DNA of 60,600 nucleotides, counting the filler, from Hausera hauseri (Eukaryota), in the NCBI GenBank assembly GCA_046269625.1. It is 11 parts of 11 records of this genome, joined end to end, with 100 filler letters (N's around TTAATTAATTAA, not from the genome) between each part and the next. Parts side by side here need not be neighbours in the genome. Positions count along the whole stretch, not along the records: positions 50,121 to 54,635 come from JBJURY010546009.1; positions 54,736 to 60,600 come from JBJURY010177638.1; 9 more parts are not named here. One strand, written 5' to 3'. A program made the position numbers and the translations under genes. The notes beneath the pieces are model-generated. The model did no database searches and was not told the DNA's origin. It saw only the letters and a program-made list of their open reading frames with translations. Shown piece after piece: positions 17,831-60,600 of this stretch (position 1 is its first letter; each line of letters starts with the position of its first letter).

Positions 17831-18688
17831 AATAAAGTGTTGTCTGGCAGTGTGTGAGCAGTTGCTGCGGCTACTGGCTGCGAGTTATTGGACTGCAGAA
17901 TATCAAAGCTTTTGTCCGCCAATAAGGCGAGCTTTTCGAGGGCAGCAGAGTCATCTACTACAGTAAGCAAAGCTCGAAAGGAGGTTGGCAAAAACGAAAG
18001 GAAATACCGACAATGAAGATCGGCATTGTTTATAGGAGTCACGCCTAAAGAGCTCAGTTGTGAGATGGCAGTTTTAAGGAAATCCGATGGTTTTTGATTT
18101 CCGATGGCGTGTTCATTAAAATACTTCTGGATTATGTAGGTAATATGTAGAACCGATTCGTACAGAATATCATACAGGCTTGAAGAAGAGAGTATATCAA
18201 CCAGATTATTGATTTGCCTCTTGATGTTGGCTGGAAGTAATTTCAGCAAACTGTCAGCCCGCTGAAAGAAATCCGTAATATGATTGGCTTGAAGCCATTC
18301 CAAATGGAACTGCAGCCAGGTACGACTAGAATTCGTCTTGTGTAGAAAAAAAATCCGTGCAGGGGAGATTTGGAGTTGTTGGTGTGGTGTCGACAGGACG
18401 ACGACCAGATTTAGTTTTTGCTAAGTGTTCGGTAGAAGGATCAAGATCTGACCCACCACGGATGCGAAAATGGACATTGAGAGTAATGGAATATTTCTCG
18501 GGTGCAAAGGATGAAAAAGAGTCGTAAGGTTGCAAAGTTAGACCGTTGTGCATAAGATAAAAATCAGAGGAGTCGAGAAAAAAGGACAATTCAGTATAAA
18601 GAAATTGAGCTGTTTGTTTGTGCGTAACCCTTAATGTGTGGACATGTTTGTTATTAGAAAATATAAGAAAAGAGGGAACAGCGCGCAA
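17831..18688 (-). mobile_element. Family C 5' end: ubiquitin-like domain (ends RIRGG at 18452) fused to gag
   Basis: FLIF..HTLRV..DFYLMHNG..TLNVHFRIRGG followed in frame by Gag LPCTDFF..TWLQFHLEWL..KPSDFL. Confidence 0.85.
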
Positions 18689-18699
18689 CGGTGGCGGGC

Positions 18700-21102: not shown

Positions 21103-22146
21103 AATACAATCAATATTTTCGTACTGTTATTTCCTTTTTCGACATGAACCAGTGAAATAGATGCAAAATGCCAATTTGCCGACATTGTAAAAATTAGGAT
21201 ATCAATTGGATTTTCGTTTGTCATTGTAAAATACAAACTCTTCAGACTTTTAATCGAAATTGTTCCAAAATCCAAATGATTGTGGTATAATTCCGATCGA
21301 TGGGGCAGAATCGTCAGTTTGACATTGTAAACAAACAGAGGTATCATAAAGAGCAAAACGTTAGGAAGTACTGAAATTTGCGTTATAAAAGAACTTATAT
21401 TTTCGGACGGAATAAAATCAATTTCAAATGATGCCGTTTCTTTGGAATTTATGTGAATCGGTATTTTGGAATTTGGTAGCTTAAAAGAAATATTTCCTTT
21501 TGGAGAAAGGGAAAAAGAATAAATAGTTATTTTGAAATCAAATGTGTTGGTTAAAAATATGGATTTCCTTTCAATTTTAGGTTTTTTAGATCCCGAATAA
21601 AATTTTGTATAATTAGCATCATAAACCAAAGAACCATGGTAGATATTAGCAGCAACTGGACCTTTTAAAGTTTCTTTTCTTTCATCGATGACAATGATAT
21701 ATCCACTAGTCATTGGCATTAATTGCCTTTACAGCCGAAAACGTGACCGTTGCAATTCCCATTTTATTCTGAGTTCCTGGTGGAACGTATTTTGTATTGA
21801 TGTCAATCAGAACTGCTTCATGTGACTTATCCATCACGATATCCTTTATTACAAGCAATCGATGTCCGGAATTTATTACGTATGATTTCAACGATTTGAA
21901 TATAGATATTAATTGTATTGAAGATGATTCATGATTATTTAAAATTATAACTTCTTCCAATTTGCTTTCGCCGATATATCTGTTTAATCTTAGAATAAAC
22001 AACATTGATAATTTAAATACATACGTGGCCGCAAACTCAATTGTTGGAGGATCAAAATGTACAGGATTTGCGGGCACTTTTCCATTGTAAATCCTTAAAA
22101 ACAAATATGAAACTCTATCAAATACTATGTCCATATCAATTATCAA
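21100..22146 (-). pseudogene. TMEM131: TMEM131-like fragment with a retained 45-nt intron and internal deletion
   Basis: HFDPPTIEF..IGESKLEEVIILNN, INSG, IPLFVYNVKL, LDFGTI...FTMTNENPIDI match TMEM131 blocks; gtatgt...aacag intron near 21980-22024. Confidence 0.7.
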
Positions 22147-22237
22147 GATTCGCCTGAGTAATCTATATAAAAAATATGGAATATAACCTACACATTTAAC
22201 AAAAATACCACCCAGACAGTTGCAAACAATATATTAC

Positions 22238-22426
22238 CATCTTTTTCCTTAGGCGCTTTGTAAAACGACAATGCTAATGAGATGATGGCAGCAACAATGA
22301 GTATGATCAAGGTAACATCTTGCAATGCCTCCCATACTAACTGCAGGAAGCTCTTGGGAGGTTTTGGAGGAATAACATTTGAGCCAAACACCCTCCGCCT
22401 CTGTTCTAAGTCAGTACAATCAATAC
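22238..22426 (-). pseudogene. ATP2B: Isolated exon of plasma-membrane Ca2+-ATPase (PMCA)
   Basis: [51 protein letters not shown], bounded by ttttag and gtaata splice signals. Confidence 0.85.
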
Positions 22427-23429
22427 CTAAAATCACAGAGATATAAAGTATTTCGGAAGCCAGCTATCTTCAGGTGTCACTAAAACACAGTAGATGAGGT
22501 CCAATAAAAAGAGAACAATGCAAAGTCATTAAACAAAAAATACCAAAAATATGGCAAACAAAAAGAGCCGAAAATGAACATCTATTAGCATAAAGCAAAA
22601 ACACAACACAAATAAATCGGAGTATGTTAAAATGTTTCAGTAAACATGGGGAGTCTGAGGTACTACAAGCGCCCTGGCAACCCTCTACCTCAGCAACATG
22701 TTTAGTCCATACCTCTCCCGACCTCAAGGTGGTGGTTTCAGGCAATAGAAGAGAACCCTTCCTGCCTATAGTGACAGGCTCGGGATGGTCACCAACTTGA
22801 AGATGGACCACTTCAAGACGGTCACATTAATAAGTACTAACTGCACTGAGGAGCTTAATCAATCCTTTATGTAAGCATAAGGATGGCAGAAAGCTTTGCC
22901 AATCTCTCAAACAAGGCTCGTATAGAAGAATACAAACTCAGTGAATCAGAGTTAACAACAATAAAAATTCCCTTGCCAGCAGATAAATATTTTAACTCTG
23001 ATAAAAACCAAAAAATAAATTATTAAAGGATCCCACAACTGTAAATGGAAGACACAATTTTTTTTTTAAATACATCACAATCACAATCTGATAAAAACCA
23101 ATGAAATATTACAGAACAAGAACTGAATAAATAAAGTAATACAGAAATATATAAAACACACAGCAATACGTGAACTTACTACTTACTTGGTTGTAGAAAA
23201 ATAAAACATAATTACAACAATAGAAATAGACAATAGAATCAAATAACTAGAACTCACAGAAACAAACATACTGACTAATACAAAGAGTTTAAAGTTGTTA
23301 TACAAAGAAAAGTCTGAGATGAAATATACTATGGAGATGTTACATTAGTGTTTCAGCGTCACAAGTTGGCTTCCTAGTGATCCTGGCCCCAGCAAAGGAT
23401 TTCACTGTATGTTGTCCAGCTTTTAGTTC

Positions 23430-23760
23430 ATCTATCTGGTGGAGATACTGGCAAGAAATAGCCGCGCTAAAGATGGAAAATGGCATAGGAAAATACCAGC
23501 AAATAAAAAGAGGTGTGCGTCAAGGATGTGTCTTATCACCTGATCTGTTCTCCATATAAAGTGAAATGATAATGAATGCTGTAGACGACAAACAAGGAAT
23601 ATTAGTAGGAGAGCACAATATAATATAACCTAAGATATGCTGACGACACTGTATTGATTGCTACAATTGAAAAAGATCTACAAACACTTGTAGAGAAAGT
23701 AGTAGAAGAGAGTGACAGCAAAGGTCTCAATCTTAATCCATAGAAAACAGAAATAATGGT
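23430..23760 (+). mobile_element. Non-LTR (RTE-like LINE) reverse transcriptase fragment
   Basis: KRGVRQGCVLSPDLFSI and NLRYADDTVLIA motifs. Confidence 0.85.
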
Positions 23761-26036: not shown

Positions 26037-26039
26037 TCA
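25955..26039 (-). promoter_or_regulatory. Candidate readthrough element UGA-CAA-UUA + stem-loop (copy 2)
   Basis: TGA CAA TTA CAG then an open frame into ORF 25641-25979; hairpin AACAAAG/CTTTGTT and TGGTTTTG/CAAAACTA. Confidence 0.65.
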
Positions 26040-27284
26040 GGTTATTTTATCATAGACATATTCTTGGGGTTCCCATACCCTTAATTCCCGTTCTACGATT
26101 TTAGTACGCTTAGTTCGACAATTTACGGTAACTAATCGAAATATCGCGATACATATTATAAATACAAGCGTTGACAGACTTACGATCATTACTATGGATA
26201 ATGTAGTCAACTTTTCGGGTTCATTAATCATTGTCTCAGTAGTAGTTTCTTGTCTTGTGTTTTTGTCTGCATGTGGCGCTATTTGCATTTCTGCTAAGGT
26301 TTGTATTGTAAACGTTTGACTCTGAGTATCTTTTGCATGTGTTTGGATTATATATTCCGTCTTGAGTTTTAACGAGTTACATTTGGCGTGATGTGAGCCT
26401 TTCCATAAGGTTGTTTTCACAGTTTTATACATCGTACGGCAATATATTTCGACATTATAATTAAGCTTCTCTTCTACTGAAAATAGTACTTTGTGTTGCT
26501 GTATAGAGCATTTTACAGGAATCTTAAGCCATTTCTTTTTGTTCATCTCGCTTGTTGTAGTAAGCTTACCAATGGTGCTTATTAGAGTAGTCCACTTCGT
26601 CGTCGTCGTTTCGATTGGAATTTTCCAGATTCCACTGTCTGGATGATATCTTCCTAAATAAATACTTGATTTATTTATTCTGATTCCATAGAGGTCAAAA
26701 TGAATCCTATATTCATGACCTGCTGCAATTTTACAACAAATCCTAAGATCTGTGATCTTTAGACTACAATATTCAGGCGTTGGACTTGACTCCTTTAATT
26801 TGGTAAATTGGATTGAGATTTCTTGTTTACTGGGCAATCTTCCTTTTGTGTCTATTTGGATACATTTGCCGTTCTTATTAGCAGAAATTTTGACTATATT
26901 TTCATTTAATACCCATTTGATGGGGTCCATCGATTGTACTATGTCATCGAGTTTCGTTATGTTAGCCCGTTCTTTAGCTGGTATGACTAATTTTACTTGC
27001 GGTCTTATTGCTCCTTGAGTGTGCTCATAGTTTTTGTAATACATTCGTATGGTAAAGGTATAAGTGTCTCCATAATTTACGACACAACAATTTTCTTGAG
27101 CTCCATATGGAAAATCACAATGAGTCATTACTCGTTTATTAGCGTTCCATAGGACTACTTGGTATCTTACCGATTTTTTCACGGCTCCGTCCGTCTTAAA
27201 TAACAGACAATCTCCTTTTGAGTCTATACTTTGGACTTTAAAACGATCTAAAGTGTTTAAATCATTTCTTTTTATTCTTATCAA
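26037..27284 (-). CDS. Retroelement-encoded type I membrane protein with about three FN3-like repeats, Thr-rich stalk, TM and YxxI tail
   Basis: Repeated strand motifs NYGDTYTFTIRM, AAGHEYRIHFDL, LKLKTEYIIQTHA; TM LSIVMIVSLSTLVFIICIAIF; tail YVYDKIT. Confidence 0.65.
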   Translation of the reverse strand: MIRIKRNDLNTLDRFKVQSIDSKGDCLLFKTDGAVKKSVRYQVVLWNANKRVMTHCDFPYGAQENCCVVNYGDTYTFTIRMYYKNYEHTQGAIRPQVKLVIPAKERANITKLDDIVQSMDPIKWVLNENIVKISANKNGKCIQIDTKGRLPSKQEISIQFTKLKESSPTPEYCSLKITDLRICCKIAAGHEYRIHFDLYGIRINKSSIYLGRYHPDSGIWKIPIETTTTKWTTLISTIGKLTTTSEMNKKKWLKIPVKCSIQQHKVLFSVEEKLNYNVEIYCRTMYKTVKTTLWKGSHHAKCNSLKLKTEYIIQTHAKDTQSQTFTIQTLAEMQIAPHADKNTRQETTTETMINEPEKLTTLSIVMIVSLSTLVFIICIAIFRLVTVNCRTKRTKIVERELRVWEPQEYVYDKIT

Positions 27285-27296
27285 TTTATTCTTCGT

Positions 27297-27722
27297 TTAT
27301 TGGCGCAATTGTTGTATTAATCCTCCTTGAGCATTGGCCTTCGGAATAATTGAGGCTTTCAGTGATAGTGATAAGACTATCTGTAAATAAGACATGGGTC
27401 TGGTAACAATAGACGAAGTTTTGGTTTTCTTTCCTTCTGTTTTCGGGTTCGCTTTTGTATCGTTAGTGCGTAATTGATATCGTTTTTCTGGCCTTATTTC
27501 CGTCTTCACCACTCGTTGTATTGACACAACTTCTTCCTTCCCGTTTTTACTAATAGAAACAGTGGTGGGTGTTACTCTGATAATTTCGTACGGTCCTCGT
27601 CCAGTACGCGTAAGTTTTAACGATGTGCCTTTCTTCGCTACGGGATAGTGTACATAAACCCAATCTCCGTTTCTTAGATCATGTGGTTTCGCGTTTTTGT
27701 CATACTGCTTCTTAAAGCTCAT
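27297..27722 (-). mobile_element. Gypsy integrase C-terminal (GPY/F) region followed by a signal-peptide-like segment
   Basis: KKQYDKNA..LRNGDWVYV..KLTRTGRGPYEII; then MSYLQIVLSLSLKASIIPKANA; same frame as 26037-27284. Confidence 0.8.
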
Positions 27723-41039: not shown

Positions 41040-44000
41040 TTGTCACACTGGTGGGGAAAGTCCTCCCATCGACACGTTAAGCCCTCCAATGAGACCACAC
41101 TCTAAGCACTACATCACCCCCCCCTTGGTAGAAGAGAAACTGTGCAAAGGTGGAAAGAAATGATAACGATAATAAGGATGAAAGGAACAATGTTTGACGT
41201 CTATTTGGTTTTGGTATGAGTTAGGCGTTGTGTGCCGTTACAGAATTTTTCTTTGCTGTAGGTGCTAAAGGTCACTATACGCGCCTTACATGAATGGTTT
41301 GTGCTTGGTTGTAGTTCGACGTTATGTGATGGAGGTGATGAGGAGAATATGTCAAGCAAAGGAGGCGATGCAATTGAACGCGATGAAACAGTGGGTATAG
41401 ACAAAGAAAGCGAAGAAAGTAGTGACATGATGACGGAGAGAAAGGCGAGAAGGATGGAGGAAATGATGATTGAGTGTGGTCAAACAGTGATCGCTGAAAC
41501 GGCGCAAAGTCGTTTAGAAAATCGGTAGACGAAAGTGTTGAGTTTGAATTGGTGTTAGCATTGACATTCGGATTGTCATAAATGAAGAAAGCAGGCTTTA
41601 GATTCAAAATGTGGACGTTGTAAGGTTTATCTTGGCGTAAAACGGTGGCTGTGTGAGACGAAATATTTAGCAGTTTGTACGGGCAAACATATTAAAGTCT
41701 AAAGCCTAAAAGTGATTGATCTTTTAACCACACAAACTTGGAGGCGTATAAATCCTTCGGAATATATGATTTGTTGCTGTTAAAGAGGCGACAGAATGAA
41801 TCTGAGCTGACCTCGACGAAGTGAGATTGTGCCGCACGAATGTTTTCGTCTGTAGGGTTGTCGACGAGATCAGAAAGTTCGAATAAGACCCCAATTGGAG
41901 TCACAAAGAGTGCTTCGGCTGGAGCACAACCGGTAGTGGTAGAGGGTGTGTTGCGCCAACCTAGTAGAACAAATGGTAGAATGGACGTCCAATTGCGATG
42001 AGTGTCAGCCAATATTTTTAAGGAAACATTTTTGTTCGATGGAACCTTTCAAGAAGGCTATTTGCTTGAAGATGATATGGTGTAGCACGAAAATGGGATA
42101 TTCCCAATCGTTTGACAAGTGATTTTAAAAGTTTCGACTAAAATTGTGGACCTTGATCCGTTATTATGTAACGTGGGGAACCAAAGCGACTGATACAGAT
42201 TTTTATAAAGGTGTCGGCAACTGAATCAATATTCGTTAAACGAAGAGGAACGACTTCAGGCTAGCGAGAAGCACGATCCATCATGGTAGGTATATGTTGA
42301 TATCCGTTGTCTGAAGATAAAGGACCAACTGTATCAAGATGAACCGTATGGAAGCGTGATGTACAGGGAAAATGGTACAGCGGCGGTTTAAGGTGTTTGT
42401 TGATTTTGTTTTTTTGACAGGCTACACATTCCTTAACCCAGCCCTGTATATCTTTGCGCATTGATGGCCATACAGCGTGACGTTGAAGCAAGCAAAAAAT
42501 TGCTTTCGAACCCGGATGATAAAGTGAGTGCGTATGAAGGAAAGCTGGCTTTTGTAAAGGTGGAGTTAGAATTATCTTTTTATTACCGGAATTCGACGTA
42601 TCAAAAGCAATGCCATCAATAATTTTGAAGGATTTAAAAGAGCTAAGGAAGTCGGTAGACGGTTAATTGGCCTTTAAGACTTCAGATGATAAAATTGGCT
42701 CAACTGTGTTGGATCTAACCAACCTCGATAGAACGTCTGCTACCAAATTGTTTGTGCCTAACATATATTTCAACACAAAGCTGAACGTAGACAGGTATGA
42801 TATATGTCTCTCTTGGTTCGGTGATGGCTATTTTAACGACATGATGTGCAGTAGAGGCTTGTGATCAGTTTGAGTGACAAATAAACGAGAAAGAAGTAGA
42901 TGTTTGTAATGTTTTACTGCCAGAACTATGGTGAATAACTCACGGTCAAATTCTGAATAACGGCTTTCAGGTTGCGTGAGCTTTCGGAAATAGAATTCTA
43001 ATGGTTCATCAACGCCATTGTATATTTGGTGTAATATCGCACCAGTTGCTGTGGTCGAGGCATCGGTGGTAAGTATAAGATCTGCGTTGGGCTTTGGATA
43101 GGCCAGTATTTTGACGGATTTTAGGCCATCGTAGCCCCACAGTAGATCGCGGTGAGTGATCTGCTTTGTGCAAAATAGCTATTTGAGATATTTTTTACAA
43201 AGATATTTGCGCAAGTCTTGCCATTTTGCGGAATAATAACGTGCGTTTAACCTCTAATTAATATAGAAAATGAAGCGACTGTATGACAAGTGTTGATGCC
43301 AGATTTTACCATTGTTTTCATGAAAATTGGATTGCAAAGGACAATTAAACATGTTTGTGCATGTTTAAGTGCAATAGTATTTGATTTTGAATTGATTGGT
43401 TTGTAATAAACATCAAATATTAATGAAATATGGTTCACTGGCAATGTATTGATTTTCATTTTTCTACAAAAATTTATATTTGACGGATTTTTCCCACTAA
43501 AAGTGATAAAATACTAATAAATATTTGGTAAAATAGTTATATTTTGTTATTCGTTGCAAGCAATCTAAACAAAAAGGGTGCATGATGTTAAAAAATAAAT
43601 ATACGTCAGTTTCTTCAAGGTGGCCTCAAACTTTTGACGGGGAGTGTAAGTCTGTTGTTATCAGCCGATAAACAACATGTCAAATTGACATTTGAATGAA
43701 CAGAGGGAAACAAGGTGTACGACTGTTCGTCTGGAAAGCATTTGTTGGTATTTGCAACGGAGTTCCTCCGCAAGAGACATCTATACTTACAGTCGACTAA
43801 AAAATCGTATACAGCTAGGAAATCGGAACCTGTTATGGGCGATCTAATGTTGGCTATATGAAATTTCCAGGAGAATTTCCCTTGTAGGTTGGAGAATGTG
43901 AAAGTCAGTTTTGTGGTACCTACAATGTTTAAAGGTTGACCACACGCACTGAAAAGTGGAGGAGAGAAAACTATGTTATATGTAGGAGCGAAAGACAAAG

Positions 44001-44718: not shown

Positions 44719-45357
44719 TTTCTTTTATCTTTTGTTGTTATGCAAAGGTTGTACTTTTGAGCACACTTTTTGAAATCTGTATAATTCATGTTATTTCAAC
44801 TTTACGTTTTCAATGGGAGTTAAAAACGGCAAATATTTAAACAAAAACTCATTTCTTAATCTAATCAAATTCAACATCAAACATACCGATTTTTTTAATC
44901 AGATAAATTGCATAATTCTTACGTTTCAATAAGTGATGGATTAAATGCACACCAAGTTTAACTAAAACATTCACATGCAATTAGATTGTATACATGCAAC
45001 AATTAATTGATATCAACATATGACGAAATTTAATTTATCGTACTTATTCACTACTGACAGAAATAAGCAATATATTTATATACATTAAATGCTCTTTGTA
45101 TTCTGCAATTCGTTTTATTTAAGTCTGACTGTACTCAAAACTCTCATTGAAATGCGAGACTTTACATTGATCACACAAGTCAATATTAATGCTACTATTT
45201 GTTCTAAATTTGAAAAGAAATATTACTAATTTTCTTGATAAATGAAATGTTACTTTGTTATTTGAATCGGATTTATAAAATCAGTTATTATTGAATTATC
45301 GCAGATTTTTGAATTATCAATAAAAGAAGTTTATACTGCGTTATTTTTTTTTTCGTT

Positions 45358-48300
45358 ATGATTGAAAAGACAATGGTGTCAGTTAAATCAAATATAACAG
45401 TTAAATCAAATAGCACAGTTAAATCAAATATAACATATAGTATTAGAAGGAATTCAGAAATATGGGAAGTTAAACGGAAACTTAATCGTGTTTACTGGAT
45501 GCCAGACTCGATTTGTCACAAATGCTATGGATGTGACGAAGAATTTACTACCATAAAACGAAAACATCACTGTCGTATGTGTGGTCAAATATTTTGTTAT
45601 GGGTGCTGCAGTTTCGTACTTCCAGGATCGTTATGGAATTTATCGAAACCACAAAGATCATGTCGAAATTGTTTTCAGTCTTTTTATTCAAATGGAAACC
45701 TGAAAAATCACAATTCAGATTTTTTCCACCAATGTCAGAACGTCACATCTGAATTACATTCTCAAAAAACATTGCTAAACAATAACAACCCAACAAATTT
45801 TCCATCGCATACATCTGGTGATTCTTTAAACCGTACGCTGTCGTTTAGTTCTCAAGATATTGCTTACGTTAGTCAAAAACGAGATCCGCTATTGTCATTT
45901 GTTGACATTGATAGTTTGGAAACAGAATCTCTTGAAAATGTTAAGAGCACAGACGACCTTTCAACTATTAAAAGAACAGCCAGTTTGCCAAAATTAGACG
46001 CCATTGGAGGTGACTCATTTATTGAATGCCGGTGTGAAACTCATTTTGGAGATACTGCCTATAGACGTATTTGGTTATCAGTTTCAGTTAACACCAAATT
46101 TCCAGTGGGTTCTACTTTGCAGGTATTTTGTTTTACAGACTTTGTTAATTCGACGGATAAAGGTTTTTATAACGTTAATCAGTCATGTTTTAAAGATGGC
46201 AATCCAATCAACGTTACAGAATATGTTTTAAACTTTACGAGTCGTTACTTCACTTTGACTATTGAAAATGTTATTAGCAATTATCAAGGTTCTTATAGTT
46301 GCAACGTAGGTTTCTGTAATAATAATAATTATAATGATAACTCATCACGTTGTTATATTGTAAAAAGTTGCAATCTGCACATTTTAGTTTTTTCACCAAT
46401 GTTTGTCAAAAGATGTACTACAGGTCAACCTCTTATTGCTGGACAGCTGGTCTGGATTTCATTGACGGCTTATCCGGGGGAATACTGGTTCAAAACCTAT
46501 TCACGTTTGTCAATTACGGATGAACCAAAAACGTGGCATGTTCAACCACCTTTAGCAGATGGAACGTCATTAACAGCTAGTGAATTATTTGTTAATGTAA
46601 CTATTACTCTACCGGAATATCCGTTTGCTTATCCGCACGTAAACGTTTGTTGCACGATACAAAATGACGCAAATACACCTTTACGTTTAACATCATGCCA
46701 TTTATTTGATGTCATTCATTTACTTAAAGGTTCTATACAGACTAAACCGCCTGTGCATCATAATCAAAGAATTAAAGTTAATTCCACAATCGTATGTTAC
46801 GGACTTAGCGGATATCCACGTCCAACATATAAATGGATTCGTTTATCACCATCTGAGATATCATTCAGTGCTTTCCAAATTCCTAATTTAACATCCATCA
46901 ACGAAACACTTTACGTTGATAGTCGGAATACCGTTCGTGGTCAAATGTACATTTACCAATGCATTGCCAGACAACTTTCCCTTCATATTTCTTTCACCAT
47001 TCAGTTTGTTGTAAGCTTATGCAGTCATGAACTGATAATGGACCTGTTTGTTGCTGTCAATACGCAAATCCACACGACGTGCGGTTCTTCAAATAAGCAG
47101 GGTTCTGAATTTTTTAATGTTGCATACAAACCTTTTTTACAACGTTTCTTTTTATCTTTACCAATTACTCCAAAAAAGACACAATTGTATTTAATTCCAT
47201 TTTTAAATTTTGACCTGAAGCACAACGCAACGTTTGTTGAATGCTCCGACAATGTACTTTGTCCAAATATTTCCGACATTTTGCAATCATACCATAGCCA
47301 ATATAGGTCACGTTTCATTCGGCCATGTGATGGAATGGAATTGTCGTGCTCTGATGTGGGTTTAAAAAACCTATACTATACCATAAATAAAGGAAGAAAG
47401 AATATTCCAAATATAGCCATCTTGGGTCGTGATGAGTCAGCCTGTGTTCAATTTAGCTACGATAAACGTGATTTAAAACTATATTCACAACTAATACGAG
47501 ATGAAAATTTTCTGATTTGGCTTCATTATTTCAATAGAAACATTAAATATATTATTGATGAAGAACCACTCATACAGCCAAACAGAACATTCATGCTCGT
47601 GAATAATTCATTGAATATATCACATTTTGGAGTATGTTGCAATCTCACCGAATATGCCTCTTTGTTTTCAATCGATGGACGCGACTTTTTAGATAGCGTT
47701 TGTTCTAAGTCCGCCATATCAAAGGATCCGTTAGGCAATCCAAATTTAACAATTTACTCGAAATTAATTTATTTAAATCTCGTTGTTACAGTTGAGTGCA
47801 CTGGAAATCCTGGCTATCCGAATGGTTCATTGACCATTTGTATCGGTGAAAACAATGCTCCCGATTGTACGTTGATCTTAAATAACATTACAAATTACGA
47901 AGAGGATAAAGTCTTTAACGTTGTTTACAATTTAACATTAATTTCTCAGTTTGATAAGAAATGGGTCATATGTATTGCAACAAATGCCATTCAAACTGTC
48001 GGGTTCGATCAGTTTTACTTTACTTCTACTCAACTGAACTATGTTTATAAACCAATGAGTTTTATGTTCATTAGCATCTATCCAAAAATCATTACTGAAG
48101 GAAGTACAGTTCTTATCAATTGTTCATTCAGCATTCCTATTTCCCCACCGATACATGTCGTAACATTGTCAAAGGAAGGAAAATTTCCCATTACCTTATT
48201 AACTGGCTTTATTAAACCAACTCAAAGCGAACAGTTTTTTATGAATACTCTACACGTTTAGTTTAACCAATATAACAAACGTTTCAAATGATCGGGACGG

Positions 48301-50020: not shown

Positions 50021-50414
50021 NNNNNNNNNNNNNNNNNNNNNNNNNNNNNNNNNNNNNNNNNNNNTTAATTAATTAANNNNNNNNNNNNNNNNNNNNNNNN
50101 NNNNNNNNNNNNNNNNNNNNAGGTAAAATAAAACCAGACGAGCAAAGAACTGGATTAATGCCAGATACTTTTTAAATGTTTGGTCTTTGGTTATAAAAGC
50201 TGCAGAAAGACGACGGCTGGATTAATTCATGTCTGAAGCCAACAATAAAACAAGAATTGTTTTTCTGTTCAGTCAAATGAACTAAAGCTGATGAGCTCGA
50301 CCTGAACATCCAGAGAAAACTAATCGGTTCCAGATGTTTAGGGACGTCCAGCTGCTTCTTTCTTTCGGGGTCACTGGTGCCCAGACCACTGCGAGGTGGG
50401 GACACCTGGACAGG

Positions 50415-50530
50415 TCTCAGCCTAACGTGCATGTTTTCAGTCTGTGGGAGGAAACCCACGCATGCACGGAGAGAACATGCACACCACCCAGAAAGGCCCC
50501 CGGAGCTAGGATTTGAACCAGCAACCTAAA
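50415..50530 (+). mobile_element. Teleost-type SINE fragment
   Basis: gcatgttttcagtctgtgggaggaaacccacgcatgcacggagagaacatgca..cagaaaggccc..ggatttgaacc resembles widespread fish SINE sequence. Confidence 0.65.
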
Positions 50531-51312
50531 GGTTTGGAACTAAACCCACAAACTGGAATTGAAAACCAGAGACTATAAAACTTTTCCAGTTTAGATTGCT
50601 CCTAGAAACAGAAACCATTTTTAGATCTTTCATAAAAACAGTTTTTCTTGTTAGTTCTTTATTCCAACCTGTGAGGTCACAGATGTCTCGTACGGGAGTC
50701 GAACAGGGCGTCGTTTATCTGAAGTCATATTTATTTTAATAAGTTTTGTCTCGACTTACCTGAGTTGAGGATGAAAGCCGTCTGAGAAATAATATAAACC
50801 ACAAACTGAATCAAAACATCATTTCTGTATCTTTATTATAACTAACAATTTATTATCTCTTAAAACATTTGAAATTCATATATATTCCATATGAACGAGT
50901 GTATACGTGTTCCACATATACATAAATAATCTGCAGGTTACCTTCAGTTCAGATTCTGTTTGTTTAAAAGATCTCTTAAAGGAAAAACGTTTTCTATAAA
51001 GTCGAACCAGTTCGTCACGTTTTCTGCTCGTTTTAAACACCTTTAAAAACCAGGAAGTTGAGGAACGTGGCCCATTCACACTGAGACGTCACAACACGTT
51101 GATAATCTGCTGCTTCCCTGCAGGATGACCGGTCTGAATGTATAGAAAGATTTAAATACTTTTCATGATAAACATTCTTTAGAACTTTTTAGATTTTTTT
51201 TTTACATCTTAAACCACGTTTAATAATTTTCATCGTCCTTATTGCTATTTCCTTTGAATTCTGCTCAGACCTTCAGCTCGAAGCAGAAAATCAGAAAATT
51301 CACGTGAAGTTT

Positions 51313-52245
51313 CAGTGTGTTACAGAGTGTGATAAAGTTTGTGTTACAGAATGTGATAGTGTGTGTTACAGAGTGTGTTACAGAGTGTGTTACAGAGTAC
51401 GATACAGAGTGTTTTACAGAGTATGATACAGAGTGTGATACACACTGTGTTAGTATGATACAGTGTGTGTTACAGAGTGTGATACAGTTTGTGTTACAGA
51501 GTGTGATAGAGTTTGTGTTACAGAGTGTGATACAATGTGTGTTACTGAGTGTGAAACAAAGTGTGTTACAGAGTGTGAAACAGTGTGTGTTACAGAGTGT
51601 GATACAAAGTGTGTTACAGTGTGTGATACAGTTTGTGTTACAGAGTGTGATACAGTGTGATACACACTGTTACTATGATACAGTGTGTGTTACAGAGTGT
51701 GTTACAGTGTGTGATACAGTTTATGTTACAGAGTGTGATACAAAGTGTGTTACAGTGTGTGATACAGTGTGTGTTAGAGTGTGATACAACTTGTGTTACA
51801 GAGTGTGATAGAGTTTGTGTTAGTGTGATACAGTTTGTGTTACAGAGTGTTACAGAGTATGATACAATGTGTGTTACAGAGTATGATACAATTTGTGTTA
51901 CAGTGTGATACAATGTGTGTTACAGAGTGTGCTACAGTTTGTTTTAGAGACTGTGATACAGTGTTACAGAGTGTGATAGTGTGTGTGTTAGTGTGTTACA
52001 GAGTGTAATACAGAGTGTGTTACAAAGAGTGCTACAGTGTGTGTTACAGTGTGTTACAGAGTGTGATACAGTGTGTGATACAGCGTGTGTTACAAGAGTG
52101 TGTTACAGAGTATGATACAGTGTGTGTTACAGTGTGACACAGAGTATGATACAGTGTGTGTTACAAAGTGTGATACAGACTGAGTTACAATGTGTGATAT
52201 GGTTTGTGTTACAGAGTGTGATGCAGAGTGTGTTACAATGTGAGG
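51313..52245. repeat. Minisatellite built from gtgttacaga / gtgtgataca units
   Basis: Directly visible about 24-bp imperfect tandem array. Confidence 0.95.
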
Positions 52246-52254
52246 TAATTTTTT

Positions 52255-52520
52255 TTTTTTCATTTACCCTTTATTTATCCAGGTAGTCTCATTGAGCCAC
52301 GAGAACTCATTTTCAAGAGAGACCTGTTAGGGAGCAGATGGTGGGGGTTAAGGGCCTTGCTCAGGGGCCCAGAGTTGGGTGAATGAGGGTGGAGGCAGGT
52401 GTGGGTGTTTCACTTTTTTCCACCCACATTTTTTGATGTTGTCGATACCGGGGCTTAAACCGGCGATCTTCCGATCACAGGCCCACCGTTTCTAACCACT
52501 GCACCACCACTCCCCCAATT
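52255..52520. mobile_element. Second fish-type SINE-like repeat
   Basis: Poly-T end, ggggttaagggccttgctcagggg and ctaaccactgcaccacc motifs. Confidence 0.55.
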
Positions 52521-53890
52521 ATTATAGTTATGTGAGTCACTAGTCATTTTTTCTGGTTCTGGTTCCTTTAGTTGCACAAAATAGGTCAGCAGAGTGTTTC
52601 ATTTTAACCTTTAGCAGTGTTGTGTGTATCTTTAAATTCAAACTCCCTGAAGAAATAATTACACCAGAGCAGCTTCATGATAATTCCTCCTGCACTTAAA
52701 TCATGCCAGAACTTGCCAGGTAAGTGACTACAGGTGTGTTCTGCAGCACTGCCCGTAATCACAGGTGGAAGGACAGCGGTTAGACTTCACAACACGAAGA
52801 AACAAGAACTAAAATGACAGCAAGGACAGAACATGTCTGAGGTGAAAGAAATGTTGTTTAAATAGCTACAAATGAACAACAGCATTTTGCACTTTTAACT
52901 TTTTATATGGAATTTTAAAATGGTAATTAAAAACAAATTTATTGTCAGTGTTAGAAACAAAGCAGAGTTTATTCAGGTCTAAATATTGGTAGTTAAAGTT
53001 TAAACATTTTAAAATGTCTCTCAAGAGGAACAGCTTCTACCATGAAATCCCTAATCAGGATTATCGTTGTGAGAAATTAAAAAAATCTGTAATGCCACTT
53101 TGATTGGTGGTATGTGCTGCTGATCTCATGCTGCTGATTATCTTATGCTGCTGTATTCATTTATACCCATCTGCTCACACAGACAGAGTTCACACAGTTC
53201 GTGCTGCTGTTATGCCATATTATCTTGCATTATTAGTGTTAAGCGTATATCTTAGTTTATAGTTTATATCCTTATACTGTATACCATTTCTTTTTACACT
53301 TTATATTTTTGCTATTGTTGGATATAACTGTGTACATAATTTTGTTCCACCACATGTACTATGTGGTGAAAAGACAATAAACCAGTTCAATAAACTTGAG
53401 GTTAAAAAATGTATATTACAGTATTACATATGGTGAATTACCACAAAAATCAAGAAACTGTTGCTTCCATTTTTGCCATTTTAATTACAAAGTATATTCT
53501 TTAAGTATTTTATATTCTTTATGTATTTTATATTTCAATTTATTCCTGTTGATCTTTGCATTGTGCTTGTTGTTTGCTTTTACACAATCTCTCTGATATG
53601 TTTCTTGCTGTAAAGTGTCCTTGGGTGTCCTGAAAGGTGCTTTTTAAATAAAATGATTATTATTACTATTATCATCCAGTGTCTTCAGTTGAAACAGAGA
53701 GACATGAAGAAAAGATAAACCTGTTAAATGAAAATGAGGTTGATAATTTTCATTTATCATGCGATTAACTGATTTAGTGTTTATTGAAACAGGCCTATGT
53801 TTCAGTGGTATTAATGTGTCTACATATTACCCAGAACAAATGTTAAAACCTCAGGGCTGCAAACCTCATCCCATCCAAACCTATATCTCA

Positions 53891-54040
<150 letters not shown>

Positions 54041-54129
54041 TTAACTTTCAAATCAGATCTTTGAGCCAAAGTGCAGATGAAAAAAAGAAATGTCAAAGCT
54101 GTCACCATTCCACACAAAATGCCTACCAA

Positions 54130-54450
54130 CAATTCAGAGTATTCCGGCCACAGACGTTAGTAACAAGGAACTCTTGAGAGAAGCGAAAACGAAGATTTAG
54201 ACACAGTGATTAGAAAAAAAGTGATGGAAATGGATCGGATATGTCCTCAGGAAGGATCCAGAGGACATTACCAGGACCGCACCGTGCTAGACACCAAAGG
54301 GAAAGATAAAAAGAGAGAAACCAAAGATAACCTGGCTTAGAACATTAGACGCTACACAGCAATGAGGCTGGCTGCAGATCGAGATAAGTGGAGTGCATAT
54401 GTTGCTGCTCCGTGAGACACCTTAGGTCATGGTGGATGATGAATGCTTTG
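54130..54450 (+). mobile_element. Decayed RTE-like LINE 3' fragment
   Basis: WKWIGYVLRKDPEDITR..PKGK-like peptide followed by a gatgat-type tail. Confidence 0.55.
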
Positions 54451-55099
54451 AAGGTCTTCATTCAGAGATGATGATGATTATAAAGATAACTCTATTTCGC
54501 AGTGTTTGTTACATATTAACATAGCTAGAAACCATCGACCACATCGAATGTGAACAATTAGTCTTATGAGTCAAGTGAGAGAATGGCTAATCAGGGCAAT
54601 CCTGGCTCGCAGGACCCTCCCACAGGTTGGACATGNNNNNNNNNNNNNNNNNNNNNNNNNNNNNNNNNNNNNNNNNNNNTTAATTAATTAANNNNNNNNN
54701 NNNNNNNNNNNNNNNNNNNNNNNNNNNNNNNNNNNATTTCACAATCGACGATATTATATAATTAATCATAGAAAAACCGTCTCGTATAAATCTCGAAAAG
54801 GCGATATTGCTCCTAATATCGGAGACACTTAATAAAGCTGAATTAAAAGCCACAATCGGAAAAATAATTCTTGCTAGTAAAGCGATAATTCCGCAATATG
54901 GAAAATGGAGTGATCTATTTCTACAAAACGAAAATGAAAAGCTACTCGAGACAGAACCCACAAATGTAGAAAAAGCTATTCTGGAAATCACTCAAAATGT
55001 ATCTCAAGAAGAAATTATTCCCGTATTCATGGAGAAAATGACGGACCTATTACAGGAAGGAATCCAAAAAGTGATTATATAAAGTCCAATGGAATATTC

Positions 55100-58042
55100 G
55101 TGAAACTTATGTTACTCTTATTAATGTTATTTTTAAATTTTAAGAAGACTGGCACAATATTGGCTTATGATTGCAACAAAATATACAAAGGTAGCTACTA
55201 CTCATTGACGGATTTACAATCATGCCCAGATGCTCTTCCGAAAAAATTAGAGACTCAAACGCAGACTTTATATATTTATTATGATAAAACTATGCTACAC
55301 TTAGAGGGATTGGAATGCTCCCTACGTGCATCTCGTACTATATCTCATTGCGATCACTTACACCACGACACTTACATTAAGCCAACTACCGTACCTAAAT
55401 ATGTGTCAATAAATGCTACATATTGTAGAGATGCAGAAGAAACTCAACAGTTAAAATGGGGAGACATCTTATTGACCTCTACAAAAGCGCAAGTAACCCA
55501 ACAAGAGAAATGGATTGCTGGTTACAAAGTGAAAAAGAAAACTGTGGCGGAGGAAATTTTGATACCGGAAAAGGTACCAAGGCAAGCATAGTAGTGCATG
55601 ACCAATACGAGGTCGAAAATTAAGGATAATACCTATATTTTCGAGACTAGTACAAATTTAATGGTAAACGCATCCTTTTGTAAGTTGCAAATGGGACACT
55701 GTCATACTAGAACATCCAAAATAGTGTGGACACCTCCCACAAGTTATGATTGTACATTAGTACAAAGCAGAAAAGGAGAATTCAATGTTACTATCGGAAA
55801 ACGCTATGCTCGTCATTATGAGACTAATTGTGAGCATACCAATATTCAAGTTATTCCGGAAATGAAAACTCCTAAAATTGTGATATCTAAGGACATCAAA
55901 GGAGGAGTCAAATTTATACAACAAGATGTGATCACAAAATGCGGACAACAAGTATATAATACTAATTACGATAATTACTTCATATCAGAAAGAGACATCA
56001 TAGGTGCGGATAATGCTGCCACTAATAAAGCTCAGCTAGTGAACATTGTTGATTACATCGCAAACCGTGATGATTTTTTGTTTTACCTAACTCACAAATC
56101 CATTGAAGAAATATACTCTGAGACCATTCAGAACTTTTTTAGAGTGAATTTCGAAACCTTGAGAAACCGTTTGGCCATTAATGCATCTAACCCCGAAATG
56201 ATCACAATAACTCTACCGTTCAGCGAAGGAATTCAGGGCATAGTTTTAGGAGAACTTCTATACACATACAAATGTAAACGATTAGACCTACCCCTGATTA
56301 CTGGTACTCCCTGCTATTCTGAGATACTTGTTAAGTATAATGAAGAAATACAACATGTTCATCCGATTACCCGAGTACTTCTGGCACCACATACAATACT
56401 CACGGAAATTGAGAATTGTTCAGCACTGAATAAACCATTTATCAATTACGACAATAAGGACCTTTGGGTTAGATTACCGGATTGTGAAATGGTTAAAGAA
56501 AGACCTAATAAATTAACGATGGCAAATTTGAGTATTGCAATTAAAACCAATATGTTTACGGACGTGTCTAAATCCGCATTATACAGCAAAAAAGAAATTG
56601 ATTCATTCGTGAAGTTTCTAGCATATCCTGGACAGAGAGAGCAAATAGTAAATCGCGGAATACACCGAGTAATCGACGACACAGCTGGAGAAGAAAAATG
56701 GGACAGGTTATGGACGCCTGACGCTTATACTAAAATAGTTTCAAATCTGTGGTGTAAAATGTGGGGTGGATTCCTGAAATTCGGCCAAGTAGCCTCTGGG
56801 TTTCTGGCCATATACTTTATCATACAGACTTTGAAAGTCTGTATCAATTTCGTATTAAATGCCCATGAGATTTACAACTTAACGGGACAATCTCTAAGCA
56901 TAATAGGTGCTGTATTTTTCCCACTTGGTAAATTCATTAAAGCTTGCCATGAGAAACAATGGTTAGGTAAACTAGAAAAACATATTCATTATAAATCAAA
57001 GAAGCCTTTTCGAAAGGATACCCTGTCAAGTTCCGATAACGACAACGTCCCTGGATATTATACTACCACAGGGATTACAAAAGATACGAAAGGAAAATTC
57101 AGGTTTATGAAACCAAAGGAGAAAAATAGACCTAAATCACTTGTTGCGCCATATGAGAATAAAACAGTTCCCATTTGCATATTACCAATATTAACAGACC
57201 TAAAGGATCCGTATGGAAAAATGGAGGAGTATATAAAATTACGTAATTTACCAAAATATTCCCAGGTAGAGATACGTCAATCCATTATCACGCGAAACAT
57301 GGAAAACAACTGTGTAACATTACATACATCACCTAAGTTAGGTATACTGCCACCTATACCTTATCACCAAACAACCCGATTAATGAAAAATCAAGTAGAT
57401 GGAGAATCCAATTTAACGACCTCACAATCCGCTAGTAAGCAAAACACAACATTACAACGTGTAAGTTGCTACCCAGACTTGACTGAACTCAAAGAGGAAG
57501 TGAAAGGAGTGGACAACTATACTCAATCTTTGGAAAGTTTAGCGGTTATATTATCAAGCGGCACTACCCGATATTGTTCAGCTAGTTACAGCTTGATGGA
57601 ACCACATATAGATAATCATAACGATGTATTAACGTTTCTCAAGCTGTTATGGGATAATCGACCACACACAACAGTTCACTTTGATAGTTTTGACATGAAT
57701 GCCATGGTCGACATCGGAGCTAACGTTGCATTAATAGGAAAACATGCGATTCCGGAAGACTTACAACCTCAGATAAAATTGACTACTGAAGATTCGCCTT
57801 GTACGACGTCTGCCTTCCAACAGTGCAGCAAGCCTTATGGATATTGGAAATGTGAACCGTGGATTGGCGGACAAAGAATTAAAATAACTTTTGATGTAAT
57901 GACTACCTTAGATCCAAGATGTATTTTAGGTATGAACGTGTTACGAAAACTAGAAGGTGTTCACATAAATTTACAATCGGGATCAATTTGTCCAAATAAC
58001 CAAGATATCCCCTTAAATACAACAAAGCAGTCATTTGGGTAG
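55100..58042 (+). pseudogene. Chuvirus-like glycoprotein in frame with the aspartic protease (frame damage near 55530-55620)
   Basis: LMLLLLMLFLNFKKTGTILAYDC..SLTDLQSC..ECSLRASRTISHC; TM WGGFLKFGQVASGFLAIYFII; the same 814-aa ORF contains AMVDIGANVALI (57710) and ILGMNVL. Confidence 0.85.
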
Positions 58043-58470
58043 GACGTGTTGAGAAAATACCACCAAATTCCTGGATTGTTATACATTCACGGACGGTATA
58101 CCCAGACAATAGTGTAATTGAGTTTATATCAAAAACTCTTCGAAATGGACTTATATTACTACATTATTGTATTAAGGTAATTGGAGGAACGGTTTCAGTA
58201 GAAGTTTTAAACACCACTCCAAGATGTGTCACGATATTCACTAAAATAAAAATTGGACAATCCCTTGAAACTACACGCCACGAGAAATACGACAACAAAG
58301 TTGCGATCATCTCTACAGCGGAACAAAAAAATGTTGAAGACACACTTAATGTCGTTCTTGCTAAAGCCAAGAAAATGTTATCAGATGAATTTCTAGGGAA
58401 TTTCTCAGATCTCATTTATTAGTACCTTGATATTTTTGCAAAAAACGAAACGAATGTCGGACGAACAGAT

Positions 58471-59370
58471 TTGATCGAATTCCGATTATCATTTATTGTC
58501 GATCCCACAACCGAAAAAGAGGTAGATTTATTACGACAACCAATACCAAAATGGTATCCTCCTCCAAAAGCACTCCAAAGGGAAGTTGAGGTACAAATTC
58601 AATCAGTGCTCGATAAAGGTATTATAGAACCAAGTCAATCACCATGGCCCTCTCTCATAGTTATGGCCAAGAAAGCTAATACGACTAAATACCGCCTGTG
58701 CGTAAATTACGTTACCTTAAATAAACACCTTATGAATCACGCTTATCCAATCCCTCGAATACGAGACATCATTGATGAACTAAAAGATTGTAAATATTTC
58801 ACCACATTAGACTTGCAAAGTGGATTTTGGCAAATCCCCGTTGCCGAAGAGGATCGGTGGAAAACTGCATTCAAAACCCATACGGGAATCTATCAATTCA
58901 CACGCATGCCATTTGGTTTAAAGACGGCACCCACTTTCGTCCAAGAATTTATTCATTTAGTACTAAAAGGAGTGCGGGGGCTATCGTACATTAACGACAT
59001 CCTCATAGCCTCCAAGACATGGTCTGCACATTTAGTGGAATTAAAGAAATATTTGATTGGATCAGACTTGCTAAATTGAAATTAAACCCAAAAAATGCGA
59101 ATGGTGTAAGAAGGAAGTTAGATACCTGAAATTGGTGGTTTCCAGTAAAGGGATATCGACCAGCCCCGATTTAGTAGCTAAAATATTGGGATACCCCCTC
59201 CTAGCACCTTGCATGAAATGAAAGCCTGGTTAGGATTGGGAGGATTTTATGCTACTTTCATACCCGACTTTGCTGAAAATAACCAACCGCAATACAAGTT
59301 ATTAAGAAAGGACCAAAAATGGGAATGGACTGATGAGAACTAGAATGCCTTTGACGAGATAAAAAGACGA
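58471..59370 (+). pseudogene. Reverse transcriptase (Ty3/Gypsy)
   Basis: YRLCVNY..LN, LDLQSGFWQI, KTAF, MPFGLKTAP, YIND (mutated YxDD). Confidence 0.92.
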
Positions 59371-59735
59371 ATGGTGTCAGCACCGATATTGAGATACACA
59401 GATTTTTCGTTACCATTTATTCTGAAAACCGACGCTAGCATCAAAGCTATTATGGTCACCTATGGAGGACGAAGTTTAAATAAAGCTGAACGGAAATACT
59501 CAACCACTGAACTAGAGCTCTTAGCAATTCGAGATGGACTACGATATTATGAGTATTATGTTTATGGCCATAAAGTCATAGTATATACTGATCAAAAAGC
59601 ACTGTTGTCTTTACGTTCCGACAACAGACACGTATCAAGTCGACTGCAAAGATGGAAATTCGAACTTCTGAATTATGACCTTGAATACTGATATTGCCCA
59701 GATAAAGAGAATGTGGATGCAGATGCGCTTTCAAG
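59371..59735 (+). pseudogene. RNase H (Ty3/Gypsy)
   Basis: ILKTDAS, YSTTELELLAI, VYTDQKAL, RLQRW, NVDADALSR. Confidence 0.9.
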
Positions 59736-59976
59736 AATACCATACGCAAGAAGGGTAGCCGCGGTTCATAAACAATTAAATAGCAGAAACGACAAACTAC
59801 TGAATGAGAAAATTATAAACGATGTGTTACAAGAACAATGACAAATTCAAGGACGAAATATCAACACTACAAAACCAAGATCCCTTTATTGTTCAAATCA
59901 AACAATTAATCAACGGGCAGTTAGTTAACCCGATACCAAATCATATTCAAAAGTTTTATAAAAAAAACGAGTAAAT

Positions 59977-60600
59977 TTGGAAATTGAAAATGGGATTTTA
60001 CACATAAAAGCCGGAGAACGGAAACTGATAATTGTACCTACATTGGCCATCAATGCTGTTATGCTACAGGAGCATGATTCACACTTATCTGGACATCCGT
60101 CTTTGAACAAGACTTTGAAGCGTATAACTGCAAAGTATTATTGGCCTCAAATGAATAAACCTATTGAAGGATGGGTCCGTTTATGTAAAATGTGTGCTAC
60201 AAGAAAAGATAGAGGATTTCGGACAAAACCATTTCTAGGAAGTTTACCTGAAGCACGAAAGCTAATGGAAGTGTGTTCAATGGATATTGCCGGACCTTTC
60301 CCAGTTTCTGACTCAGGATACAAATACATTTTGTCATTTGTTGATTATTTATCGCGCTACGTCGTATTAGTACCATTAAAAAACATGACTAGTAGCACAG
60401 TTGCGGAAGCCATTTCTATGAAATATCCTACTTCATTAGCGAATTCTTTGAAAAAGTGTCAAAAATACTCCAATATAAACACCTGTTAACGACATCCTAC
60501 TATCCACAATGCAACGGTATGGTCGAATGGATGAATCGAACTGTTCAGGGCATACTTTCTACAAAGGTAGCACAAGATCAGAATGATTGGCATAATAACA
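59977..60600 (+). pseudogene. Integrase (HHCC + core), truncated by the window end
   Basis: HDSHLSGH..YYWPQM..CKMC..MDIAGP..VDYLSRY..YYPQCNGMVE. Confidence 0.9.

Follow-up and report, generated by a model that had tools for sequence, protein, structure and literature searches.

The window, that is, the whole 60,600-nucleotide stretch of Hausera hauseri DNA that was analysed, consists of 11 small contigs joined by spacers, and positions run along its full length. The contig at 54736–60600 carries a decayed Ty3/Gypsy element in the order glycoprotein (G), one membrane anchor, linker, protease (PR), reverse transcriptase (RT), RNase H (RH), and integrase (IN); the first four of these, from G to the protease, share a frame. 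The long open reading frame (ORF) runs from stop to stop at 55595–58042 (815 codons); counted from its Met at 55598, it encodes 814 aa. Within it, Pfam recognised PF24664 (Monjiviricetes_fusion) at aa 75–450 (E 3.1e-45) and RVP at aa 687–788 (E 0.0016, barely under the cut-off). A sequence-only reading had placed G, a transmembrane segment, a linker, and a protease in this 814-aa ORF; the ORF scan, the two Pfam families, and the landmarks (anchor at 56801, DIGA at 57710, and ILG at 57923) confirmed it. An N-terminal G piece at 55088–55588 also matched PF24664 (E 2.8e-10) and shares the frame of the long ORF, from which two stops at 55589–55594 separate it. The long ORF had no PDB match at E up to 10 when searched by sequence, and an Atlas search with it returned no usable match. 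The contig is 5.9 kb, and both ends of the element lie beyond it. Because the window is built of small joined contigs, the LTRs and most of gag fall outside this one.

Upstream of env, a Gag-side remnant of about the last 106 codons, cut by the contig end, occupies 54762–55082 on the plus strand, in a frame that differs from that of G in this copy. It resembles the corresponding part of a second window element, which there lies upstream in frame (35% over 51 aa, E 4e-4), and neither a capsid (Pfam) nor a knuckle (CCHC pattern search) was recognised in it. None of the contig's sense frames showed a CCHC pattern, which bears out the earlier statement that no zinc knuckle lies between G and PR. 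Its absence there is explained by relatives, in which the knuckle lies upstream of env. Gag capsid, knuckle, and LTRs were seen on neither element contig; therefore, gag and the LTRs are assumed from relatives.

Signal and transmembrane assignments are based on hydropathy windows (KD). An internal, signal-peptide-like hydrophobic stretch (55088–55165, plus strand, KD window 1.93) ends at a predicted signal-peptidase site before YDC, in the same context as in relatives. The AYDC start that had been placed behind such a stretch was found at 55163, preceded by it. The G ectodomain follows at 55166–56788 on the plus strand (541 codons, 16 Cys, and 6 sequons), and the two in-frame stops interrupt it inside a locally disturbed stretch. 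The predicted structure of the ectodomain has a mean pLDDT of 86 and is low solely at residues 124–134. With this model, Foldseek retrieved a chuvirus-type G (E 1e-27, TM-score 0.66–0.70); in the VIA-align structure search, the top five rows were all herpesvirus gB, and HSV gB was aligned over 420 residues (Z 9.8, rmsd 9.7). Judged from PF24664 and the predicted fold, G is a chuvirus-type class III (gB-fold) fusion glycoprotein; the sequence-only reading had called it chuvirus-like. The membrane anchor region (56789–56945, plus strand) has the anchor, with a window of KD 1.98 at 56801, and behind it a weaker hydrophobic amphipathic helix (KD 1.47).

The basic, Ser/Thr-rich linker behind the anchor is the predicted cytoplasmic tail and spans 231 codons (56942–57634, plus strand). 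It contains no stop in the G/protease frame, against 20 in one of the remaining frames and 16 in the other, and a stop-free linker was reproduced in none of 20,000 shuffles. The linker had no Pfam match, and a profile built from the protease domains of 31 relatives detected no degenerate first protease in it. The retroviral-type aspartic protease (57635–58042, plus strand) is in frame with G and was recognised by RVP and by the profile of relatives' proteases (E 7.7e-16); its catalytic motif is degenerate. Between protease and RT lies a spacer of 140 aa (58000–58422, plus strand), homologous to the spacers of the second element (E 1e-6) and of relatives (E 4e-4). As regards a dUTPase-like identity, no Pfam or PDB match names the spacer, and its Atlas matches at 0.95–0.96 are unnamed.

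The RT (58423–59340, plus strand, RVT_1 E 9.8e-21) is interrupted by stops and frame changes. In the PDB it matched Ty3 RT best (E 3e-32 and 2e-31), followed by the next entry at 5e-22, with retroviral RTs also behind. RNase H of Ty3/Gypsy type occupies 59344–59691 on the plus strand (PF17917 E 6.1e-22, PF17919 E 7.7e-20). The integrase zinc finger and core (59962–60600, plus strand, PF17921 E 3e-17, rve E 8e-5, tblastn to 60590) contain a frame change and are cut by the contig end. No Bel/Pao-type Pfam family matched the contig at E up to 1, whereas Ty3-type families did. The order PR-RT-RH-IN is that of Ty3/Gypsy (Metaviridae), and together with the RNase H families and the best RT matches it identifies Pol, at the level of sequence, as Ty3/Gypsy type, in agreement with the first assignment. 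The earlier account of RT, RH, and IN behind the protease was confirmed by Pfam. In this copy, a change of frame near 58.0 kb puts the three outside the G-protease frame. Further stops and frame changes interrupt Pol, and the catalytic motifs of protease and RT each deviate from those of intact relatives; the copy is therefore dead.

A diverged element with the same layout, here element 2, lies on another contig (33210–38313, minus strand). Its upstream part is of coiled-coil and ubiquitin-like character and is followed by a signal stretch, then by G, TM, linker, protease, spacer, and the start of RT. The two elements are 28% identical and collinear, with the same domain order in one frame. 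That frame of element 2 holds 11 stops in 1070 codons versus 91 and 74 in the others, and its linker has stops at 3 of 217 codons in the G/protease frame. The distance from anchor to catalytic Asp is 293 aa in one window element and 307 aa in the other. The ubiquitin-like part upstream of env in element 2 is a weak match to PF00240 (E 3e-4).

Relatives were found by a full HMMER protein search, while word-indexed protein searches gave none. The 13 long relatives that were scanned come from the best 17 of 150 listed matches, with four short fragments left out. Among these 13, five continue past the protease into RT and four into integrase, and the cluster members P0152 and P0154 also run G-PR-RT-RH-IN. 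P0005 and P0016 end at the anchor or shortly behind it and lack a protease; they may be damaged, incomplete, or genuinely separate. P0005 has a Bcl-2 match upstream of G (E 1e-3). Five of 15 relatives have a CCHC knuckle, which in every case precedes G. Of the 13 relatives with a YDC-type start, 9 show a hydrophobic window of KD 1.6 or higher ahead of it. Behind the anchor, and up to the protease where present, no further window of at least this height occurs in 13 of 14 rows, and a weaker second hydrophobic helix (KD 1.0–1.7) follows the anchor in 13 of 14. The sequences thus compared support the view that fusion of G to the protease in one frame is characteristic of the family.

The G tree was built by a quick method with a midpoint root. 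In it, both window copies group with all 13 polyprotein-embedded Gs and five other rows, and element 2 is sister to the 54736–60600 G. A 23-row group with the Lishi spider virus 1 G is separate from the group of the window copies (SH-aLRT 99). P0050, a G with the Bel/Pao-linked domain DUF5641 upstream, is in the other half of the tree. In run X1, which may be the source sample and is given no independent weight, 4034 related contigs cover the element, mostly at 85–95% likeness. On these sequences, run X1 shows a multi-copy family, represented by contigs among which no intact member was shown. A scan of viral contigs yielded no relative among 60 pattern matches. The whole-contig indel table missed frame changes known in RT, and its blanks were not used.

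The 54736–60600 element is best read, with a probability of about 0.8, as a dead Ty3/Gypsy copy with a gB-fold env in frame before the protease, in the published Burro GAG-ENV-POL layout, whose intact members likely make one membrane-threaded polyprotein. The hydropathy of the family fits such threading through the ER, which the sequence-only reading had proposed together with release of G by signal peptidase and tethering of Pol to the G tail until protease cleavage. The Gag-side part would be synthesised in the cytosol, the internal hydrophobic stretch would act as a signal anchor, and a signal-peptidase cut before YDC would leave the G N-terminus free in the ER lumen. Since the single anchor would stop transfer, the linker, protease, RT, RNase H, and integrase would fold in the cytosol on the G tail. 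Were the weaker second helix to span the membrane as well, the protease would end up on the lumenal side. G trimers may concentrate protease monomers, and the protease may release Pol from the G tail during or after budding. The flavivirus capsid stays membrane-bound via its signal stretch until clipped, and Gag could be held in the same manner. The likely purpose would be enveloped particles that spread from cell to cell into the germ line.

Retrovirus and Ty3 particles contain far more Gag than Pol, and such an excess is required of them. A fixed 1:1:1 ratio of Gag, Env, and Pol would be odd for a retro-particle, so splicing or other control would be needed. The long ORF could instead be a coding reservoir, from which Gag, Env, and Pol arise mostly through spliced or shortened messages, with Pol packaged via Gag or RNA and not via the G tail. 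The linker would suit this, as its sequence is not conserved and the distance from anchor to first protease Asp varies from 126 to 378 aa in 13 relatives. Likewise, Cer1 splices within one long ORF, according to the available part of its description (PMC10309623). However, both window elements keep the linker readable in the frame shared by G and protease, and 11 of the 13 long relatives (best 17 of 150 listed matches) have G followed by the protease in one protein, which suggests translation through the junction. A coding reservoir is therefore judged unlikely, while keeping some weight.

A programmed frame change after the protease could also set the amount of Pol, yielding Gag-Env-PR and less Gag-Env-PR-Pol. 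This copy has a -1 change between protease and spacer and an in-phase slippery-type heptamer near 57968, read from the sequence; however, the shifted frame meets a stop within about 10 codons, and element 2 and the seven relatives with RT read through the equivalent of 58.0 kb in a single frame. In addition, the depth of related contigs collapses at the same spot, and among the 8 listed of 129 related contigs, all three that bridge it are gapped, two of them so that both frames coincide. The one-frame relatives and the gapped bridging contigs largely refute a programmed frameshift, which is very improbable, and by these comparisons the change near 58.0 kb is specific to this copy and not common to the family. 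The recent insertion into a gypsy element of an endogenous viral element encoding a chuvirus glycoprotein, in frame by chance, would suit the chuvirus-type identity of the nearest named structures and of one named sequence relative, yet it is refuted, to the point of having almost no probability, by the order shared with element 2 and intact relatives, by the placement of the window copies in the G tree apart from Lishi spider virus 1, and by the related contigs in all 30 bins of the element; G is thus not a nested insertion.

For the membrane-threaded polyprotein, a flavivirus-like strategy is proposed tentatively, at slightly under even odds. One ER-threaded Gag-Env-Pol polyprotein would hold Gag on the Env signal anchor and carry Pol into enveloped particles on the fusion-protein tail, with the protease activated by clustering of Env trimers. 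Neither the literature search nor the available passages yielded a description or test of this way of packaging Pol. The two window elements would also make up a distinct branch with long linkers, perhaps from a parasitic flatworm; the nine published flatworm rows include no parasitic species. If Pol truly rides on the envelope tail, there would be a second route to an enveloped retro-particle, one in which Gag, Env, and Pol are made at 1:1:1, and this would bear on how long gypsy elements have been associated with class III fusogens. The remaining interest lies in how such polyproteins function. The dead 54736–60600 copy is a poor object for a processing test, and naturally expressed planarian elements are better.

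The 54736–60600 copy probably comes from a flatworm, and several known systems resemble the window elements. The non-canonical nematode endogenous retroviruses of Sacco et al. reportedly have a continuous gag-env-pro-pol ORF in which the glycoprotein of an RNA virus precedes a Metavirus-type Pol, and are said to be restricted to nematodes. The layout had been thought novel; however, the accessible portions of two papers describe families with it, in frame in the first and as the order GAG-ENV-POL in the second. An existing family of this layout had been named beforehand as what would remove the novelty. In the Burro/GYPSM1 planarian gypsy-like LTR retrotransposons (Arkhipova and Yushenova 2019, PMC6431247), env lies in frame between gag and protease/pol. 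By that partial description, their env is like that of the window elements in its homology to fusion glycoproteins of the mononegavirus type and in its place ahead of the protease, in frame within one polyprotein. They also share zinc knuckles upstream of env (as in relatives of the window elements), a ubiquitin/SUMO-like domain upstream of env (weakly matched in element 2), and a spacer between protease and RT, which is dUTPase-like in Burro. Burro ORF1 (~4,900–5,100 aa) is described with BIR, ankyrin, MATH, and BCL2 domains (PMC6431247); none was seen on the short window contigs, whose elements lack their 5' ends.

The second family comprises GAG-ENV-POL gypsy "ancient errantiviruses" with an HSV/gB-type ENV from Platyhelminthes, Nematoda, and Bryozoa (Chary and Hayashi 2026, PMC13524379). 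The available text of that paper also reports 114 arthropod elements in which a chuvirus-like glycoprotein lies next to gypsy POL, and lists nine flatworm elements (Macrostomum, Prostheceraeus, and Schmidtea). Troyka (PMC12440569), without env and unrelated to the window element, and Cer1 (PMC10309623), without a true env, were rejected as counterparts on the available parts of their descriptions. Anakin, the mosquito Bel/Pao elements with chuvirus G (Dezordi et al. 2020, PMC7642597; described in PMC13524379), has the same glycoprotein family (PF24664), whereas its backbone is Bel/Pao and the window element has a Ty3-type Pol. The GAG-ENV-POL errantiviruses share with the window elements a Ty3/gypsy Pol, a gB-fold env, the order of env before pol, and multiple copies (PMC13524379). 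Env precedes the protease in both window elements, and gag motifs upstream of env are seen in relatives. The Schmidtea ENV rows of the same paper look like the window G, by eye only. The window copies differ from the elements it describes in being decayed, in forming their own branch, and in their longer-than-usual linker. The layout is thus already known, and the new part is one decayed lineage.

Element 1, a decayed Ty3/Gypsy copy, occupies the last (54736-60600, plus strand) of the 11 spacer-joined contigs of the window, which are 4.3-6.6 kb each. Both of its ends lie beyond this contig, so the LTRs and most of gag are out of view. An ORF of 815 codons, stop to stop (55595-58042), encodes a Monjiviricetes fusion glycoprotein family domain (G; aa 75-450, Pfam, E 3.1e-45) and then a retroviral protease (aa 687-788, Pfam, E 0.0016), and the start of the same glycoprotein family is found at 55088-55588 on the same strand (Pfam, E 2.8e-10). 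Scored with a profile built from 31 protease domains of relatives, the protease gave E 7.7e-16. RT, RNase H and integrase follow downstream in that order (Pfam). A hydrophobic signal-like stretch with AYDC (55163), a membrane anchor (56801, hydropathy) and the protease motifs DIGA (57710) and ILG (57923) lie on the plus strand, in the places given by the sequence-only reading. The linker (56942-57634) has no stop in its 231 codons and 20 and 16 stops in the other frames, and a stop-free linker arose in 0 of 20,000 shuffled sequences. A pattern search found no CCHC knuckle on contig 54736-60600. The in-frame arrangement of G and protease, as originally observed, is confirmed.

Element 1 is a dead copy, because its G is split by two stops (55589-55594), its reading frame shifts at about 55.05 kb and again at about 58.0 kb, Pol carries additional stops and frame changes, and the catalytic motifs of the protease and RT differ from those of intact relatives. 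Other copies were surveyed in a single public run (X1), which may be the source sample and contains the element 1 stretch. In this run, 4034 contigs cover all 30 bins of element 1, most of them 85-95% alike, showing that it belongs to a multi-copy, diverged family. The depth of matching contigs drops from ~1000 to ~50 near 58.0 kb. Among 8 of 129 aligned contigs viewed, all three that bridge this point are gapped, and in two of them the gaps bring the protease and RT frames together. Taken together with element 2 and with relatives that are intact, these contigs mark the shift of frame near 58.0 kb as decay peculiar to element 1.

Element 2, a relative on another contig (33210-38313, minus strand), is 28% identical to element 1 and collinear with it. 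Its order is an upstream part, signal stretch, G, anchor, linker, protease, spacer and RT start. It keeps a single frame from G to the spacer, in which 11 of 1070 codons are stops; the other frames contain 91 and 74. The upstream region (476 codons, 2 stops) continues into the signal stretch; it begins with a coiled-coil-like part and has a weak ubiquitin-like match (PF00240, E 3e-4) that lies ~300 codons ahead of the signal stretch. Neither a capsid nor a knuckle was recognised in element 2.

A HMMER search of 1.84 billion proteins returned 503 matches, with long polyproteins at the top. The layout was counted in the 13 long matches among the top 17, excluding four short fragments. G and then protease lie within one chain in 11 of the 13; the chain ends at or shortly past the anchor in P0005 and P0016. 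Five of the 13 extend to RT and four to integrase, and P0152 and P0154 have the order G-PR-RT-RH-IN. A CCHC knuckle occurs in 5 of 15 relatives, always upstream of G, which explains why none lies between G and protease. A G tree was built by a quick method with midpoint rooting (n=43: 2 window, 13 polyprotein and 28 picked from the remaining listed matches). Elements 1 and 2 are sisters (SH-aLRT 99). The group they fall into takes in every one of the 13 polyprotein Gs as well as 5 other rows, and is separate from the group that contains Lishi spider virus 1 G. The tree and the shared layout rule out a fresh chuvirus insertion as the origin of G and indicate that the G of element 1 represents an old embedded lineage.

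Several relatives have further features. At least two tandem protease domains lie behind the envelope anchor in P0003, P0004, P0006, P0007, P0010, P0152 and P0154, whereas the window elements have one. P0002, P0007, P0013, P0152 and P0154 carry extra hydrophobic segments past the integrase in the same chain. P0002 (HBK71150.1) is an intact envelope-bearing gypsy polyprotein entered at NCBI as a protein from a metagenome-assembled genome of Flavobacteriaceae, and is likely a mis-binned animal contig.

Elsewhere in the window, gypsy Pol fragments with no glycoprotein detected lie at 10081-11471, 13734-16170 and 42033-43109. At 26037-27719 (minus), tblastn detects the C-terminal part of an integrase. 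Behind it comes an ORF of 419 aa that has a membrane segment at its C-terminus and may encode a second surface protein. Intron-free host-like gene pieces (TMEM131-like, RNA helicase) adjoin a gag-like piece at 17831-23760 (minus). An odd mosaic at 45313-48261 (plus) is an intron-free 982-aa ORF that combines a FYVE finger with immunoglobulin-like domains. Contig 50121-54635 is unlike the rest, with a 12-base satellite (51.3-52.3 kb) and short interspersed-repeat-like pieces; our impression is that it may be DNA of another organism, e.g., a fish.

The G ectodomain (55166-56788) was modelled with 95 relatives and with X at both stops, giving a mean pLDDT of 86 and a pTM of 0.70, with low confidence only near the break. 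Against viral models, Foldseek placed chuvirus-type glycoproteins at the top (E 1e-27, TM-score 0.66-0.70) and herpesvirus gB below them. Among 48,161 solved chains, the best five rows were herpesvirus gB, followed by thogotovirus and rhabdovirus glycoproteins; HSV-1 gB gave Z 9.8 and rmsd 9.7 over 420 aligned residues. The G of element 1 is a class III fusogen; having this fold in common is not evidence of activity.

In 9 of 13 relatives, a hydrophobic window lies ahead of the YDC-type start. Basic residues follow the anchor, and 13 of 14 rows have no second strong hydrophobic window behind it. Order, frame, fold and hydropathy are observed; as the most likely processing route we infer one in which the Gag-side part would remain cytosolic, an internal signal would direct G into the ER, signal peptidase would release G and the anchor would halt transfer. 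Pol would fold in the cytosol, tethered to the tail of G until released by protease cleavage, and the signal stretch would keep Gag membrane-held. No test of such processing or packaging was found in the literature searched; the figures and GitHub set of PMC13524379 and Sacco et al. 2022 may bear on the point. In nearly all rows, however, the anchor has a second, weaker hydrophobic helix behind it, which could alter the topology of this ER-threaded model. It would also be unusual for Gag and Pol to be made in equal amounts, and the actual Gag:Pol ratio may therefore come from splicing.

Nematode elements reportedly contain a 'continuous gag-env-pro-pol ORF' (Sacco et al. 2022). Chary and Hayashi 2026 (PMC13524379) describe gypsy elements of Nematoda, Bryozoa and Platyhelminthes that have a GAG-ENV-POL order and a gB-type env, crediting Sacco et al. 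2022 for the nematode elements, and 114 arthropod elements in which chuvirus-like glycoproteins adjoin gypsy POL. In view of these reports, it no longer holds that env in elements of this kind always forms an ORF of its own at the 3' end. The sequence-only interpretation is partly supported: its chuvirus-like glycoprotein in frame with the protease stands, and its claim of a novel layout falls to these published elements. By eye, the window G resembles the Schmidtea ENV rows of PMC13524379, and this likeness and the Burro-like anatomy make a flatworm the likely host. The anatomy of element 1 is like that of Burro, the planarian gypsy-like elements with an in-frame env between gag and protease (PMC6431247), and element 1 is a further, decayed example of an already known layout.
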